Virus record (IMG/VR): IMGVR_UViG_3300032335_000935
Location: 4,090-68,089 of that record
Source: a virus
Strand: one strand, 5' to 3'
DNA: 64,000 nucleotides
Positions within the stretch are counted from its first letter, which is position 1. Every line of letters starts with the position of its first letter. Below the pieces are notes generated by a model. The model was not told the origin of the DNA, did not search any database, and was given only the letters and a program-made list of their open reading frames with translations. Below, one piece after another: positions 24,355-39,280 of the stretch. Both the position numbers and the translations under genes were made by a program.

Positions 24355-24729
24355 ATGCAGATCACAGAAGATCAGTTTCGTTTTGAGTGGTTTTCGGGCA
24401 CCGGTAAAGGTGGTCAGCATCGCAACAAGCATCAAAATTGTTGCCGCTGTATCCACGAACCCACTGGTATATCTGCCAACGGCACCAATAGTCGCAGTCG
24501 TGAAGACAACCGACGTGCGGCCTACACTGTGTGTCGCAGCCGTGTGCAAGCACACTTTCATCGCGATCGTGAGCGATTCTTGGCCGGTACTGAACGCATA
24601 CGCACCTACCACGAAGCTGACAATCGTGTTACAGACCATGCGTCGGGGCTCATGGACAGCTGGTCCAACATCATGGTCAAAGGCAACTTAGATTCCATGA
24701 TCACGGCTCGTGCACAGGCCACAAGATAA
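24355..24729 (+). CDS. arfB: peptidyl-tRNA hydrolase, release-factor GGQ domain (ArfB/YaeJ-like)
   Basis: FSGTGKGGQHRNKHQN...HEPTGI...RSR pattern of class-I RF catalytic domain; 124 aa with basic C-terminal half. Confidence 0.75.
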   Translation: MQITEDQFRFEWFSGTGKGGQHRNKHQNCCRCIHEPTGISANGTNSRSREDNRRAAYTVCRSRVQAHFHRDRERFLAGTERIRTYHEADNRVTDHASGLMDSWSNIMVKGNLDSMITARAQATR

Positions 24730-25505: not shown

Positions 25506-26052
25506 TGCTTTTCGCAAAGAGTGTTTGGCCAAACAACTCGAAGAAGGCGAGACCACTCAACAACATGCGGACGAAATGACTGACTTGTTCAAGAGCTGGG
25601 AAGAACAAAAACTAGAAATGGAAGAGACCTCGGACTGGCAGGAAAACAACATGGAATATGATCTGCGCACCACTGACTGGATCTTGGAAAAAGCAAGGTC
25701 TAGTGAACTGTATGCTCAGCACCTCTATGCAGCCTTGTGCAACAATGACTTTCAAAAAAATGATGTCATGCCTATTCTAAAAAACAAAACCTGGGGTTGC
25801 AGCTGGCGCTATGCTGGCGGCGTCATTGCCGACATGCGTGAGTCAGGCGACTACATGGACTGGTACTGCTCGGGCATACGGGGTGACAAATTGAGCGACT
25901 CAGAGTTTGCTGATTTGACCAAGGACCAAAAAGTTGCGTATCTTGAATCTCAGGCCTATGTTTCAGAAAGCGTGGTCACAGACGAAATTCGTGCGGACCT
26001 ATTTCGTCTGGGCTGGCTGGTGGTTGACAGCGAGGAGTCAAGCCTGATATAA
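25474..26052 (+). CDS. hypothetical protein
   Basis: ORF track. Confidence 0.4.
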   Translation: MSKISRRPIRNAFRKECLAKQLEEGETTQQHADEMTDLFKSWEEQKLEMEETSDWQENNMEYDLRTTDWILEKARSSELYAQHLYAALCNNDFQKNDVMPILKNKTWGCSWRYAGGVIADMRESGDYMDWYCSGIRGDKLSDSEFADLTKDQKVAYLESQAYVSESVVTDEIRADLFRLGWLVVDSEESSLI

Positions 26053-26223
26053 TTGCACTAAATAAGTGCCAAGGAGGGGCAAGCCATGAAACAGCGCAAA
26101 CTGGTTCAAAAGGTGTATCGAGCTTGCTTTGACCATGACGCCGAAAGATTAGCCCAACTCCGTAAGAAAGAGTTTGCTAAGATCCAAAAACGCCGGGCCG
26201 AAGGAAAGCCGTTCAATACCCGA

Positions 26224-26313
26224 TGGACTTTGGTTAGGATTTAAAGGTTATTGCTGTATGAAGCCGAGAGAAAAGTGTTCTGGACGCGGGTTCGACTCCC
26301 GCCAGGTCCACCA
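26224..26313 (+). ncRNA. ssrA: tmRNA acceptor piece (T-arm + 3' acceptor strand + CCA) of a permuted two-piece tmRNA (tRNA-like)
   Basis: T-arm gcggg-ttcgact-cccgc then caggtcc-a-CCA; 3' strand pairs with gggcctg at 26558 giving G3:U70. Confidence 0.6.
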
Positions 26314-26322
26314 TAAGGAAGT

Positions 26323-26544
26323 TTGATGCAAGTATACGGATATTGGGATAAGAAAACTAGGTTCATATTTGGACCTGGCAACTTTGAAATGGATTCAGCC
26401 AAGAGTGATTTGACTCCGTTTTATACCCAACCTGTCTATGAAGGGCAAGAACCTTTTGCCTGTATCAAATCTGATGTAGGAATATTTCTACACTATCCAC
26501 AATATATTGGACAGTATGATTTAGTTCCTGTGTATCAGGGTTAA
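26323..26544 (+). CDS. hypothetical protein encoded in the tmRNA intervening segment
   Basis: 73-aa ORF between the two tmRNA pieces. Confidence 0.3.
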   Translation: MMQVYGYWDKKTRFIFGPGNFEMDSAKSDLTPFYTQPVYEGQEPFACIKSDVGIFLHYPQYIGQYDLVPVYQG

Positions 26545-26557
26545 GTTTTCTTATGAT

Positions 26558-26746
26558 GGGCCTGTCATGGTTTCGACAGGGCAAAGAGTAACAGAGTGGA
26601 CAGCACGTTAGATGACGAACGTTAATCGCATAAAACCTATAAACGCCAACGACGACGTTTACGCACTGGCTGCTTGAGCAGCCCGCTGAGGTAGGAATAC
26701 CGAGAAACAGAAACTTCCAAATAGGCTCTTCGGAGCCTATTTTTTC
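26558..26746 (+). ncRNA. ssrA: tmRNA coding piece: 5' acceptor strand/D-analog, tag reading frame ANDDVYALAA-stop (26645-26677), terminator
   Basis: gggcctgtcatggtttcgacaggg resembles tmRNA 5' consensus; gcc aac gac gac gtt tac gca ctg gct gct tga; ends at hairpin ggctcttcggagcc + T7. Confidence 0.7.
26724..26746 (+). terminator. intrinsic terminator
   Basis: ggctcttcggagcc hairpin + tattttttc. Confidence 0.7.
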
Positions 26747-26759
26747 AAACAGGGCTCAC

Positions 26760-27410
26760 ATGCTAGCTACCATAGCACTATTTTTGCATCAACCCAAATG
26801 CTCAGTACAGAGCGGCAACGGCATCATACAGGCCTTGAGTCCCTATTATCGATTCAAGATCTTTACCCGACAGGCTGTGGAAGACGACTTCTTTGACGAT
26901 GTAGATGTAGTGGCCGTGCCTGGTGGCATAGGCGACAGCGAAAGCTATCGCTATGTCATGAGCGAACATGAATCGAGCATACAACAGTTTGTCAAACAGG
27001 GTGGCAGATATCTTGGCATCTGCATGGGCGCATACTGGGCCGATCAAGAATATCTTGGTCTCACCACCGGAGTCCGTGCTGTGCAGTACATCACGCGACC
27101 CAACACTGACACTCGCAGGCCACATCCCAAGAACATCGCAGTGACTTGGCAGGGCCAGGCCACCAACATGTATTTTTACGATGGCTGCGCTTTGGTGGGT
27201 GACGAAACCACGTTTGACGTGGTGGCTCGCTACAGCAACGGTGACCCCATGGCCATCATACAGAACGGTGTGGGCTTGATTGGCTGTCATCCCGAAAGCC
27301 AACAGTTCTGGTATCAAGAGCACTCATGGATGCGCCCGCACTACCACCAAGGTCAGCATGCCACTCTGTTGTTGAACTTTGTTGATCAACTGTGTGGACG
27401 AGATCGCTGA
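26760..27410 (+). CDS. class-I glutamine amidotransferase-like fold protein (DJ-1/PfpI/BPL_N-like)
   Basis: VAVPGGIG ... LGICMGAYWAD nucleophile-elbow-like Cys. Confidence 0.45.
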   Translation: MLATIALFLHQPKCSVQSGNGIIQALSPYYRFKIFTRQAVEDDFFDDVDVVAVPGGIGDSESYRYVMSEHESSIQQFVKQGGRYLGICMGAYWADQEYLGLTTGVRAVQYITRPNTDTRRPHPKNIAVTWQGQATNMYFYDGCALVGDETTFDVVARYSNGDPMAIIQNGVGLIGCHPESQQFWYQEHSWMRPHYHQGQHATLLLNFVDQLCGRDR

Positions 27411-27741: not shown

Positions 27742-28620
27742 TTGGAGACTAACATGCGTTATTTCATCGCGGCCATGATCTGGTTGGCTGCTGTCTGTGC
27801 TCAAGCACAAACCATCACAGTACACATTCCTTACAGCAAGACCGGCAATGCACAAGCCACCACTCGACTGCTGTTGGACGGCCTGGAACAGCGGGGCTGG
27901 CGCTTTGACGAGCGTGTGACCAGCAATCCAGTGTTGAGCAAAGAAACATTTGCCAATGCCCGTGAGCCCATGTTGTTGCTGTGGGGCACTGATCTTGTGC
28001 CCACTCGCGCACATGCTGGCTATCGCCCAGTGCCTGCACCACAAGAACTGGTAACTGTGACTTACGTGATTCCACGCTACATCTGTGCTGCCAACAACAG
28101 CAATGTCAACCTCATTACCACTGAACAGTTTGTGAGTCGTGATCGTGTGTGGACCATTGGAGTCACTGTGGTACCAACCGAAGAACGTTACATACAAACC
28201 CTAAATCAGCACTTGGGCACACGTCACCGCATTGTGAAGTATACCAACAGTCGCGAACTCGAAGCCGCAGTGGCAGCTAGAGAAGTTGATGTGGTCATGA
28301 CTTCCATTGGATTGAGACTGGAACAACAGAATCGAGCACGTTGCTTCTACAACACCAGCCAGTATCGTGTGGGCTCAACTCCCTTGATCACTGACCATCA
28401 TCCTCACATGCTGCCTCGTAACTTTGCTGCTGTGAGTTATCTTGTGGCACGTGGCATGGATGCAGCCACCATGGCTCGCTTGCGTCAGGATACCTTGGCC
28501 GTACAGCGTGAGTACCAGCCCTATGTGGACTATCTCAAACGCAACTTCAATCCCGAAACACCCTTAGCATTGGATCAACAACTGCGTATCATTCAAGAAC
28601 TTGATGGCAACACTCCATGA
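27742..28620 (+). CDS. secreted/periplasmic solute-binding-like protein (TctC-like?)
   Basis: N-terminal signal peptide MRYFIAAMIWLAAVCAQAQ; translationally coupled to permease. Confidence 0.4.
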   Translation: METNMRYFIAAMIWLAAVCAQAQTITVHIPYSKTGNAQATTRLLLDGLEQRGWRFDERVTSNPVLSKETFANAREPMLLLWGTDLVPTRAHAGYRPVPAPQELVTVTYVIPRYICAANNSNVNLITTEQFVSRDRVWTIGVTVVPTEERYIQTLNQHLGTRHRIVKYTNSRELEAAVAAREVDVVMTSIGLRLEQQNRARCFYNTSQYRVGSTPLITDHHPHMLPRNFAAVSYLVARGMDAATMARLRQDTLAVQREYQPYVDYLKRNFNPETPLALDQQLRIIQELDGNTP

Positions 28621-29921
28621 ACCCTGAATGGTTGTTGTTGGCCGCTGCGCCCATGATTGGTGTTGTGATTGGTCTCATGCCAGCCCTGGGCGCACTGTTT
28701 GTGATGCTGATGCTGTATCCCATGCTGTTGCATGTGACCCCTTGGATCGTGGTGGTATTCTATGCCATGATCATTGCAGCACGTGATTTTTCAGGGTCAG
28801 TGGCGGCCTTGGGGTTTGGCATGCTGGGCGAAGTCAGTTCAGGTCCGGCACTGCGTGAACGTGCTGCCATTCTGGAACATGGTGGCAGTCGTCAGGCCTT
28901 GATTGACACCATGTGGGCCAGTCAAGTGGGTGTGATCACTAGCACAGCATTGCTTATCATGGCTGTGACCCTGGGCACTTCAACTGCGTGGTTGTTTCGC
29001 AGTGATGTGCAGGCTGTGTTCATGATGGTCACATTGCTGTTCTTGTTGGCCTGGGCCAATCAGGCCTGGTGGAAAAATGCTGTGCTCATGATCTTGGGCT
29101 ATGTGATTGGTGCTGTAGGCTACAACATGCGCACCAATTCTGACTTCCTGACCTTTGGCAACATGTATCTCATGGGTGGCATCCCTGTATTGCCTGTGAT
29201 CCTGGGCATATACGCTGTACCAGTGATGTTGAGAATCGCCGGCACTGCACCGCCGGGCGATCCTGCGCCCATCACACAGACATGGACTGTGGGTAGATCC
29301 TGGTTCAGCATGTTGCGTGGCAGTGTGATTGGCTCAGTGTCTGGGCTCATACCTTATGTAGGCTGTGTGGTAACCAGTAACTTGGCGCACTGGACAGAAC
29401 GTTGGTTCAGCCCACGTTGGAATCTTGATCACAGCCTACGCAGATTAAGTTCGGCCGAAGCGGCCAACAATGCTGCACATGTTACCAGTCTCATACCATT
29501 CATTGTCATGGGGCTGGCAGTGCAACCCAGTGAACTGGTGCTGTTGGAAATCCTACACACTCAAGGAGTGAGACCACAAGATGTTGCGGGACTTGTGTTT
29601 GCTGTGGCCGGGGGCGTGGCAGTGAGTGCCTTGGTGGCCGGGTGGTTGTGCAGTCATGTGGTATCACAGTTGATGGCCTGGTTCCAACGTTGGTTCCGTG
29701 CCATTGTGTCTGTGTTGGTGGTGGCCTTGATCGCCAATGTGGCCTGGATTGGCTGGAGTGCAGACCAAACTGTGTATTATCTTGTGACCTTTGCTGTGAG
29801 CATGCTGGTGGGCCTGGCATTGCATCGCCGAGTAGATGCCTTGCCCTTGGTGTTGGTGTTGCTGCTGCAAAATCATCTAGATATTGTGTTCCCTAGAATC
29901 TATCAATTTTACCTATCATGA
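28617..29921 (+). CDS. integral membrane permease, TctA-like (two internal repeats)
   Basis: many TM helices; GVVIGLMPALGA and GSVIGSVSGLIPYVG resemble the duplicated G-rich motifs of TctA. Confidence 0.45.
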   Translation: MNPEWLLLAAAPMIGVVIGLMPALGALFVMLMLYPMLLHVTPWIVVVFYAMIIAARDFSGSVAALGFGMLGEVSSGPALRERAAILEHGGSRQALIDTMWASQVGVITSTALLIMAVTLGTSTAWLFRSDVQAVFMMVTLLFLLAWANQAWWKNAVLMILGYVIGAVGYNMRTNSDFLTFGNMYLMGGIPVLPVILGIYAVPVMLRIAGTAPPGDPAPITQTWTVGRSWFSMLRGSVIGSVSGLIPYVGCVVTSNLAHWTERWFSPRWNLDHSLRRLSSAEAANNAAHVTSLIPFIVMGLAVQPSELVLLEILHTQGVRPQDVAGLVFAVAGGVAVSALVAGWLCSHVVSQLMAWFQRWFRAIVSVLVVALIANVAWIGWSADQTVYYLVTFAVSMLVGLALHRRVDALPLVLVLLLQNHLDIVFPRIYQFYLS

Positions 29922-33705: not shown

Positions 33706-33794
33706 GCCTCTGTAGTTTAATGGTAAAACAGCGGATTTATATCCCGTGTGCAACAGATAATTGGCCAATACAGGTTCGACTCCTGTCGGAGGCA
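33706..33794 (+). tRNA. tRNA-like, 89 nt (anticodon candidate TAT or GAT; extra hairpin/insertion), possibly tRNA-Ile
   Basis: acceptor gcctctg/cggaggc, D gttt/aaac, T-arm acagg-ttcgact-cctgt, CCA; anticodon arm ambiguous. Confidence 0.45.
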
Positions 33795-34039
33795 CCAACA
33801 GACCATTTTGGTCAAATTGATCGGCCTGTGTCAAAAACTCAATGACGATGGGCCCAACTGCTGGGGACCAATAATTGGATCCAGGGCCTCTGGGATTAAG
33901 TTCAAGGCTGTTAGTCACAGTCGAACCATGTGCCTGGAAGGAAGTGAGCGCAGACTTGTGTTCAGTACCTTTAAACACAAAGCAGTAGGCAGATCAGTTT
34001 GTCCAAAATAGTTTGACAACAAAACGCATTTGTCTTACA

Positions 34040-34530
34040 ATAGATACTTGGGGCAGTTTATTGTCCTGCGCAGTATGGTTCGCCCAGCTGTGCAAAGAAT
34101 AACTGGGGTGACCCAGCCAAAGGAGGTAAGCCTACGCAACTCCGCCAGCAATGGTTCGTGTAAACAAGCCTGCTCAGGTCCGCGAGGATCCCTTCACTGA
34201 GAAGACCGGTGGAGGTAACAATGACGCTGGGAGTATAGGAAAGAACAGTGGCTTACCGGCCCGCAAGGGTAACCGGAGTCGCTGGAAAGTAACAGGTGGT
34301 GCTGACTTCTATACAAAACCAGCCCAGTTAATTGGTATGAGAAAGGGTAGCGTACAGGTCCGAGAGGTTGCACTCAAGGGCTTGTGCGCAGTTTTAGTGG
34401 TCAGTGGAGGTACGCGAAAGCCGAGACCCGACACAGATCGCAAAAGACGGTTGAGTAGTCCGCAAGACCAAAGACACGTGGTGAGTTGTATTGTGCAGTC
34501 CAAAAGATTGTTCAGCAACTGAGTCAGCTC
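34040..34530 (+). ncRNA. candidate structured non-coding RNA (~0.5 kb; GNRA-tetraloop hairpins; group-I-intron/RNase-P-like?)
   Basis: no credible ORF (34151-34522 ORF is low-complexity Arg/Gly-rich); motifs cccGCAAggg, tccGCAAga, gcGAAAgc. Confidence 0.3.
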
Positions 34531-34540
34531 ATCGCAGTAG

Positions 34541-34612
34541 GTTGTTATAGCACAATGGTAGTGCATTTCTCTGTTAAAGAAACGGCTGAAGGTTCAACTC
34601 CTTCTAACATAC
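34541..34612 (+). tRNA. tRNA-Asn-like (GTT) with imperfect acceptor stem (possible pseudogene)
   Basis: D gcac/gtgc, anticodon tttct/agaaa loop ctGTTaa, T-arm gaagg-ttcaact-ccttc; only 5/7 acceptor pairs, no CCA. Confidence 0.4.
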
Positions 34613-34953
34613 AAAAACGCAAAGACTGACTCGGTCATATGTGAAAAGCATCTAATACTTGACTGGCAACAGAATCAAGTCCAACGTAGCTCGCAAGGTG
34701 AAATTGGTTTATGCAGGAAGTTTCGTAAGGTGTTAGCGCACTTGAATGGCTCGCAAGGTCAACGGGATAGAAAGCGTAGAATAGCATGTGACGACAAGCC
34801 TACTGCCTGGCTTTAAAAACGGCGATGCTGACAGCAGACTAGGTTACATAGCAATATGGATCTAGTGGAAGTCGAGAGAAGCTAGACTCGCAAGGTGTAG
34901 CGTAATGCTCGAGGTGTTGTTGGCTTAAGGTGTATTCTCAACCTTAGGCACTA

Positions 34954-39208: not shown

Positions 39209-39280
39209 GGTGATATGGCGTAGATGGATGCGCACCGGACTCATAAGCCGAGGAGGAAGGATCGATACCTTCTATCACCA
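39209..39280 (+). tRNA. tRNA-Met/Ile2-like (CAT) with variant T-loop ATCGATA and weak anticodon stem
   Basis: acceptor ggtgata/tatcacc, loop ctCATaa, T-arm gaagg-atcgata-ccttc, CCA. Confidence 0.5.

Follow-up and report, generated by a model that had tools for sequence, protein, structure and literature searches.

The locus studied here raises the question of whether two separate fragments, encoded in reversed order, together form a working tmRNA, and what an open reading frame is doing in the segment between them. It lies in what we refer to as the window, the whole 64-kb stretch of viral DNA (64,000 nt) that was analysed. From the letters alone, a circularly permuted two-piece tmRNA with alanine identity had been predicted, with an ORF in the segment that would be excised.

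To a large extent, the original prediction was borne out. ARAGORN called a permuted tmRNA (tmRNA*) at 26221-26768 with the tag ANDDVYALAA. The Rfam model tmRNA_permuted (RF04321) agreed with this, giving 138.6 bits (threshold 47, E 4e-27) over the full model (1-213), with an alignment that covers the acceptor stem, the T-arm and the P2 pairs between both pieces. The outcome that had been named as speaking against a permuted gene, a standard one-piece tmRNA elsewhere and no model for this locus, did not arise, because Rfam found no match to a one-piece tmRNA (RF00023) in the 64-kb window. The T-arm, both acceptor strands, A73, the CCA, the D-analogue and the tag frame were all present as claimed, and the coding piece ends in a hairpin followed by a U-tract, as had been expected of its terminator (Table 1). 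The tRNA-like 3′ half (26286-26313) is encoded upstream of the 5′ half (26558-26576), which is the permuted order. In the 7-bp acceptor stem GGGCCUG pairs with CAGGUCC-A, resulting in a G3:U70 pair and an A73 discriminator and thereby in alanine identity; G3:U70 was invariant at all 88 related junctions. The tag frame (GCC AAC GAC GAC GTT TAC GCA CTG GCT GCT TGA, 26645-26677) resumes on an Ala codon.

Table 1. Features of the tmRNA locus and its upstream region (positions in the window)
Feature	Position	Strand	Details
Sigma-70 promoter	26024..26053	+	TTGACA, 18 nt, TG-TATAAT; 12/12 hexamer matches, extended -10 TG
ORF52	26086..26244	+	Small gene; AAGGAGG Shine-Dalgarno; ends 2 nt before acceptor piece
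Degenerate promoter-like site	26212..26240	+	TTCAAT, 17 nt, TAGGAT; 7/12 matches
Acceptor piece of tmRNA	26247..26313	+	ARAGORN, RF04321 alignment
P2 strands, acceptor piece	26252-26256 and 26276-26282	+	
T-arm	26286-26302	+	GCGGG-TTCGACT-CCCGC
Acceptor 3′ strand	26303-26309	+	CAGGTCC
A73	26310	+	
Encoded CCA	26311-26313	+	
Closing helix, 5′ strand	26310..26323	+	Contains AAGGAAG; covariation, precursor minimum-free-energy fold
Spacer (IVS)	26314..26557	+	244 nt; GC 36.5%; predicted to be removed from mature RNA
ORF73	26326..26544	+	72 codons; ATG 26326 to TAA 26544; in-frame TTG 26323
Closing helix, 3′ strand	26544..26557	+	AGTTTTCTTATGAT; ends at predicted RNase P site, immediately 5′ of G1
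Coding piece of tmRNA	26558..26746	+	ARAGORN, RF04321, beta_tmRNA 94 bits
Acceptor 5′ strand	26558-26564	+	GGGCCTG
D-analogue	26565-26576	+	TCATGGTTTCGA
P2 strands, coding piece	26577-26583 and 26601-26605	+	
PK1 hairpin	26606-26621	+	
Tag	26645-26674	+	ANDDVYALAA
Stop codon of tag	26675-26677	+	TGA
Terminal hairpin	26719-26746	+	GC-rich, with U-tract

The two pieces are connected by standard P2 pairs at 26252-56/26601-05, 26276-78/26581-83 and 26280-82/26577-79. According to the Rfam alignment, the middle four-pair segment of P2 is non-canonical at the window locus, which counts against a functional reading. The PK1 hairpin aligns in the Rfam models, from which the pseudoknot pairing itself is absent. 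When both pieces were folded together with RNAcofold, the canonical structure was not recovered and the result was no better than with a shuffled acceptor piece. With a non-canonical fold that equals its control, this experiment was dropped as evidence in either direction.

Alpha-proteobacteria and some cyanobacteria had been named as the relevant homes of such genes. This part of the prediction could not be maintained. When the coding piece was searched alone, it scored 94 bits on the betaproteobacterial model beta_tmRNA (RF01850; threshold 84, model positions 134-331), including the clade-specific 3′ hairpins. The close relative L005 reached 148.7 bits at full length on the same model, with 74% mean column identity over the aligned region. 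Because of these two scores, we assign the predicted window tmRNA to the betaproteobacterial two-piece lineage, a third type, termed the ‘third lineage’ by Sharkady and Williams 2004 (cited in PMC9004378). The full-length window gene gave no beta_tmRNA match in Rfam and only a marginal match to alpha_tmRNA (RF01849; 51.5 bits, cut-off 50). The latter is probably what survived the Rfam overlap filter, with the long insert penalising the beta model, and since the beta model wins when the coding piece is searched alone, an alphaproteobacterial assignment was dropped. The locus shares with betaproteobacterial-type tmRNAs (RF01850) the gene order, the tRNA-like domain, G3:U70, the P2 pairing, an ANDxxxALAA-type tag and the terminal hairpin. 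It differs from them in that it lies in a phage-like genome and has an IVS of 244 nt that is protein-coding.

Two-piece tmRNAs had also been described as rare or undescribed in phages, and here the published record and our own search say otherwise. A survey of 18,146 phage genomes reported 133 unique tmRNAs in 402 phages, and 53 of these 133 were two-piece by ARAGORN, mostly from aquatic phages (PMC9004378). In GenBank, the Stenotrophomonas Menderavirus phages (annotated ssrA) and Alcaligenes phage QDWS595 harbour beta-type permuted genes beside tRNA genes. A scan of IMG/VR with the 16-mer GGTTTCGACAGGGCAA matched at least 120 viral contigs. Among those listed, 114 permuted genes were resolved by script, and ARAGORN called 108 of 111 listed relatives permuted, mostly with ANDxxFALAA tags. 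The same 16-mer was searched in bacterial genomes for host inference, but was uninformative: many phyla were matched, because the motif is a conserved tmRNA 5′ region, and one of seven ARAGORN calls among these bacterial matches was permuted. The cultured and marine phages with two-piece tmRNAs (Melnitz, pelagimyophages, Menderavirus, QDWS595) likewise have a permuted ssrA adjoining phage tRNA genes. The IVSs of those that we examined are short and without ORFs, unlike that of the window. The tmRNA of Melnitz is of the alpha type and has a glutamine riboswitch in its 3′ domain (PMC9004378), whereas the window gene has a protein gene in its IVS.

Several other features of the relatives were observed in the course of this comparison. 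Very short IVSs of 2-4 nt without an encoded CCA were found at L023, L039, L045, L081 and L120 (for instance CACTTCC-ATTGAT-GGGGGTG), the opposite extreme to the window. Tags much longer than the usual 10 residues occur in the lineage (L003 4250-4370; L127 1107-1193; L072); the tag of L127, AKASTFKFWQVPASVALAANDAEFALAA, has 28 residues and that of L003 has about 33 and ends in AALA. Suppressor-type tRNAs lie near the permuted tmRNA at L013 (5061-5137), L024 (6981-7055), L058 (1932-2007) and L002 (1687-1763), three of them, in IMG/VR contigs, with the anticodon CTA and one, in Alcaligenes phage QDWS595, with TTA. These hint at stop-codon reassignment or suppression in related phages; no suppressor-type tRNA was seen in the window.

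The segment between the two pieces does carry an ORF, as predicted, although it measures 244 nt from CCA to G1 and not 245 nt. For the 114 listed viral relatives, the median IVS length is 76 nt (range 2-239), and no length falls between 146 and 203 nt. An IVS of at least 200 nt is present in only four of the 114, and that of the window exceeds all of them. ORF73 (26323/26326-26544) fills 90% of the IVS, and an ORF of equal length was obtained in one of 2000 shuffles. Its ATG is preceded at a distance of 4 nt by the Shine-Dalgarno sequence AAGGAAG (26315-26321). Fourteen metagenomic homologues with 71-92% identity were found, 27 residues are invariant across 14 sequences, and Nei-Gojobori dN/dS ranged from 0.12 to 0.41 in all 21 pairs among seven ORF73 loci. 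At the level of sequence comparison, the homologues and the dN/dS values mark ORF73 as a real protein gene under purifying selection.

Members of the ORF73 family are also present outside tmRNA genes (L006, L128-131, L253-259). In L006 and L128-131 the homologue is translationally coupled between a PTPS gene and the next gene, and the more distant members on seven IMG/VR contigs (L253-259) have no tmRNA nearby. ORF73 has no match in Pfam or among the PHROGs. Its AlphaFold model is small and all-beta (pLDDT 76.7), and no structural neighbour of this model was found. An origin from a homing endonuclease or intron was considered and rejected: there was no intron family match and no Pfam domain, the T-loop TTCGACT is intact, and a group I intron in the T-loop with a LAGLIDADG ORF was not found at the window locus.

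We also compared the sequences at both ends of the spacer. The discriminator together with the 13 nt that follow it pairs with the last 14 nt ahead of G1, interrupted by a single C-A mismatch, which means that 13 of 14 positions are paired in the window (26310-26323 with 26544-26557). In the minimum-free-energy fold of the precursor this helix closes the whole IVS. Over 88 unique junctions the 13 helix pairs were 93.2% paired, with compensatory changes at 11 of the 13. The covariation score was 0.561 compared to at most 0.141 for slid partners, and none of 500 shuffles reached the observed values. Because the loci were selected by the acceptor stem, its own pairing of 99.8% follows from the selection, which did not involve the extension helix. 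We conclude from this covariation that the acceptor stem is extended by a helix that would exist only in the precursor. Its 5′ strand doubles as the Shine-Dalgarno sequence of the cargo ORF, and the helix would hinder translation from a Shine-Dalgarno sequence buried in this way. The same helix was found in many IVSs without an ORF and thus pre-dates the cassettes. As the conserved flanks are the helix strands, the protein genes occupy the loop of a precursor hairpin that was there before them.

The window is not the only locus with a protein gene in this position. All IVSs of at least 200 nt that were found (L013, L024, L058, L112, L003, L127 and the window) hold an ORF that fills 87-97% of their length, and the 138-nt IVS of L065 is likewise filled. 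L127 has ORF73 in common with the window, and L013, L024, L058, L112, L065 and L003 each harbour a different ORF. The cargo ORFs comprise 41-130 codons, lengths that were reached by 0-11 of 2000 shuffles. Those IVSs of 119-146 nt that lack such an ORF could not be told apart from shuffles. In six of the eight loci the ORF starts about 10 nt after the CCA behind a TAAGGAAG-like sequence, and in four of the eight its stop codon is the TGA of the conserved TCTTTATGAT, 1 nt before G1. Every one of the ORF-bearing loci was called a permuted tmRNA by ARAGORN, by RF04321 or by both. The 125-residue ORF of L003 belongs to a family of 28 proteins. One member of this family is present on 13 contigs and lies inside a permuted tmRNA in L260, L262 and L263 (RF04321 75-77 bits over 598 nt); another member (L264) lies outside any tmRNA. 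ARAGORN missed L003 and L260-263, all with an IVS of about 370-400 nt, and standard annotation therefore under-counts such genes. Taken together, putative protein cassettes are recurrent in the spacers of the relatives.

We found no literature report of protein-coding ORFs in permuted-tmRNA spacers, in a search that covered subscription journals thinly. A database paper from 2025 (PMC11915505) singles out a tRNA-Ala gene in one IVS and a repetitive element in another as curiosities, and protein-coding cargo is unmentioned there. Those genes resemble ours in that insertions are tolerated without loss of the tmRNA. However, their cargo is non-coding and consists of single oddities, whereas here it is protein-coding, comes from several unrelated families and is recurrent. 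The same paper describes intron-form tmRNA genes with homing-endonuclease ORFs, which likewise have a protein gene inside a tmRNA gene that is removed from the mature RNA. In contrast to these, the T-loop is intact here, there is no intron, removal of the spacer is proposed to be performed by tRNA-processing enzymes, and the proteins are without a nuclease signature. The two-piece tmRNA is thus known from phages, while the nesting of a protein gene in its spacer, recurrent in related phages, seems to be undescribed.

The origin of the insert was approached by comparing related loci. ORF73 has a GC content of 37% versus 48% for the window, and its homologues elsewhere have 36-40% in contigs of 36-42%; the low GC content of ORF73 would fit a recent acquisition. 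At L072 a homologue of ORF52 lies directly upstream of a near-identical acceptor piece, followed by a 97-nt IVS without an ORF, and this locus serves as an empty site for the insertion of ORF73. ORF73 is also present in L127 (85% identity), where the 244-nt IVS is flanked as in the window but the rest of the tmRNA has diverged, including the T-arm and the tag of 28 residues; this suggests an exchange via the conserved tRNA-like flanks. In L005 (2960-3420) a decayed acceptor 3′ end and remnants of the 5′ strand flank an ORF73 homologue, with a destroyed T-loop, a one-base deletion and AGGCCTA in place of GGGCCTG. Behind ORF73 follows a fresh acceptor piece with ACCT instead of ACCA at its 3′ end and a short IVS, joined to the same coding piece. 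The acceptor half of the split gene has apparently been replaced in L005, and as decayed remnants are kept beside the fresh piece, superseded acceptor copies seem to decay. The acceptor copy of the window is intact and has no decay of this type. L132 (930-1282) shows an ORF73 homologue followed by the tmRNA coding piece, with its own promoter (TTGACA-17-TATACT), and no acceptor piece was found within 968 nt upstream. Perhaps the acceptor half is encoded at a distance from the coding half, or it has been lost. The nested arrangement is therefore not fixed, which counts against the functional reading.

The window looks like part of a large uncultured phage. It encodes 41 tRNA genes, all on the + strand between 24259 and 44201, that cover most anticodon families, and one further tRNA (39209-39280) was matched by Rfam and missed by ARAGORN. 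An exonuclease, an HNH endonuclease and an ATPase were found as PHROG matches. None of the ten large window ORFs scanned against PHROGs was a capsid or terminase gene, and the assignment to a phage therefore rests on indirect features, namely the tRNA genes, the GOLLD RNA and the PHROG matches. This GOLLD RNA (RF02032, 204 bits, full length) is located at 34478-34944 in the middle of the tRNA array, with tRNA-Asn (34540-34613) within its span; tRNA-Ile(tat) at 33706-33797 is unusually long (92 nt). A nucleotide search among cultured phages gave no close relative of the genome and matched only the tmRNA pieces themselves. The closest synteny was found with a 168-kb IMG/VR contig.

The genes around the tmRNA were inspected as well. 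An ORF of 124 aa (24355-24729), 1.5 kb upstream of the tmRNA, contains an RF-1 domain (Pfam PF00472, E 2.4e-15) with the GGQ motif. It resembles a release factor or an ArfB-like peptidyl-tRNA hydrolase, and could possibly be a second ribosome-rescue factor in the tmRNA region. Directly downstream of the tmRNA lies a gene for a BPL_N/GATase-like protein (26760-27410). The next gene (27742-28620) codes for 292 aa with a start that resembles a signal peptide, and at 28617-29921 there is a membrane protein of a tripartite tricarboxylate transporter (TctA, E 2.9e-41). These three genes are unusual phage cargo. A query with an approximate E. coli SmpB, which is a weak test, gave no SmpB homologue in the 64-kb window, so the function of the tmRNA would depend on a compatible SmpB of the host.

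Next we looked at the transcription of the locus. The nearest strong promoter upstream of the tmRNA unit is the sigma-70 promoter at 26024-26053, and ORF52 is probably co-transcribed with the tmRNA. At the site equivalent to window positions 26212-26240, L072 has 10/12 promoter matches. Of the 20 relatives that score at least 10/12, 16 have a -10 element whose end lies 9-10 nt upstream of the conserved 5′ motif in the acceptor piece. Because the tmRNA's own promoter position is degenerate in the window, the precursor may start further upstream and include ORF52.

All things considered, we think it likely that the locus is a functional permuted ssrA of the betaproteobacterial type in a phage-like tRNA region, and that the loop of its precursor helix has been colonised by a horizontally acquired ORF73. 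A single precursor would be transcribed from the 26024 promoter through ORF52, or from a weak internal promoter, and would end at the hairpin at 26719-26746. The 13-pair helix would extend the 7-bp acceptor stem, thereby turning the 244-nt IVS into a closed loop. RNase P would cleave 5′ of G26558, the 3′ end would be trimmed back to the CCA at 26313 and the IVS would be lost, while the acceptor stem and P2 would hold both pieces together. After charging with alanine via G3:U70, the tmRNA would act with host SmpB to add ANDDVYALAA to proteins on stalled ribosomes. ORF73 would have been acquired horizontally into the helix loop, using the 5′ strand of the helix as its ribosome-binding site. This follows the established course of a tmRNA, outlined also in PMC11915505 and PMC9004378, which comprises RNase P cleavage at G1, 3′ trimming to CCA, base-pairing of the pieces, alanine charging, and SmpB-aided tagging and release. 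For the window, the sequence analysis shows the family of the RNA, the closing helix, the coding nature of ORF73 and the recurrence of such cassettes in relatives; we infer the processing sites, the charging, trans-translation, and the timing and RNA source of ORF73 translation.

The unusual spacer might instead mean that the tmRNA is a dying pseudogene, whose assembly was stopped by the insertion of ORF73 so that only the protein gene is under selection. An IVS that exceeds those of all 114 listed viral relatives (median 76 nt), the degenerate local promoter, co-folding equal to the shuffled control and the L005 lineage, which replaces and discards acceptor pieces, would all fit this. We nevertheless regard it as improbable, as all conserved elements are intact and the RF04321 score of 138.6 bits compares to 111-140 bits in relatives with a short IVS. 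Moreover, the window is without the decay seen in the discarded copy of L005, its closing helix is kept at 13 of 14 positions and would bring the halves together, and ORF-bearing IVSs occur with intact tmRNAs in at least ten other loci (L127, L013, L024, L058, L112, L065, L003, L260, L262, L263). It is very unlikely that ORF73 is untranslated and that the 244-nt IVS is a long non-coding spacer that is open by chance. Such a spacer would explain why ORF73 has no Pfam, PHROG or structural match and why its Shine-Dalgarno sequence is buried in a helix, but not the dN/dS of 0.12-0.41 in 21 pairs, the 27 invariant residues across 14 sequences, the homologues that are translationally coupled to other genes outside tmRNA, or an ORF length that one in 2000 shuffles gives.

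The nesting could also be regulatory, with ORF73 translation and tmRNA maturation coupled to each other: opening or cutting of the helix would free the Shine-Dalgarno sequence, or ribosomes on the IVS would delay RNase P. This is consistent with a Shine-Dalgarno sequence that is the 5′ strand of a covarying helix, with stop codons 1 nt before G1 in four loci and with helix flanks that are kept while the ORFs differ. Since the helix is also found in many IVSs that have no ORF, its role as a Shine-Dalgarno sequence may be an opportunistic one, and we consider such a regulation unlikely. To a broader proposal we give a small chance: the spacer would be a standing landing pad, from which the nested mRNA is freed or unmasked by the enzymes that mature the tmRNA, so that expression of the cargo is coupled to the output of rescue RNA. 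If this is true, the message would after processing almost be a non-stop substrate of the tmRNA from which it stems.

Returning to the preferred reading of a functional permuted tmRNA with a colonised spacer, the finding means that working protein genes from several unrelated families can be accommodated in the spacer that is excised from a split RNA gene, in the loop of a conserved precursor helix. Split tmRNA genes are not unusual in phages, as a single scan with a short motif yielded more than a hundred of them. With 41 tRNA genes and the GGQ protein, the locus is placed within a translation-support region typical of very large phages. For the evolution of phage genomes, the conserved tRNA-like flanks may be recombination handles for cassette swaps. 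For RNA processing, the locus would represent a natural mRNA that is nested in, and perhaps released from, a tRNA-like precursor.
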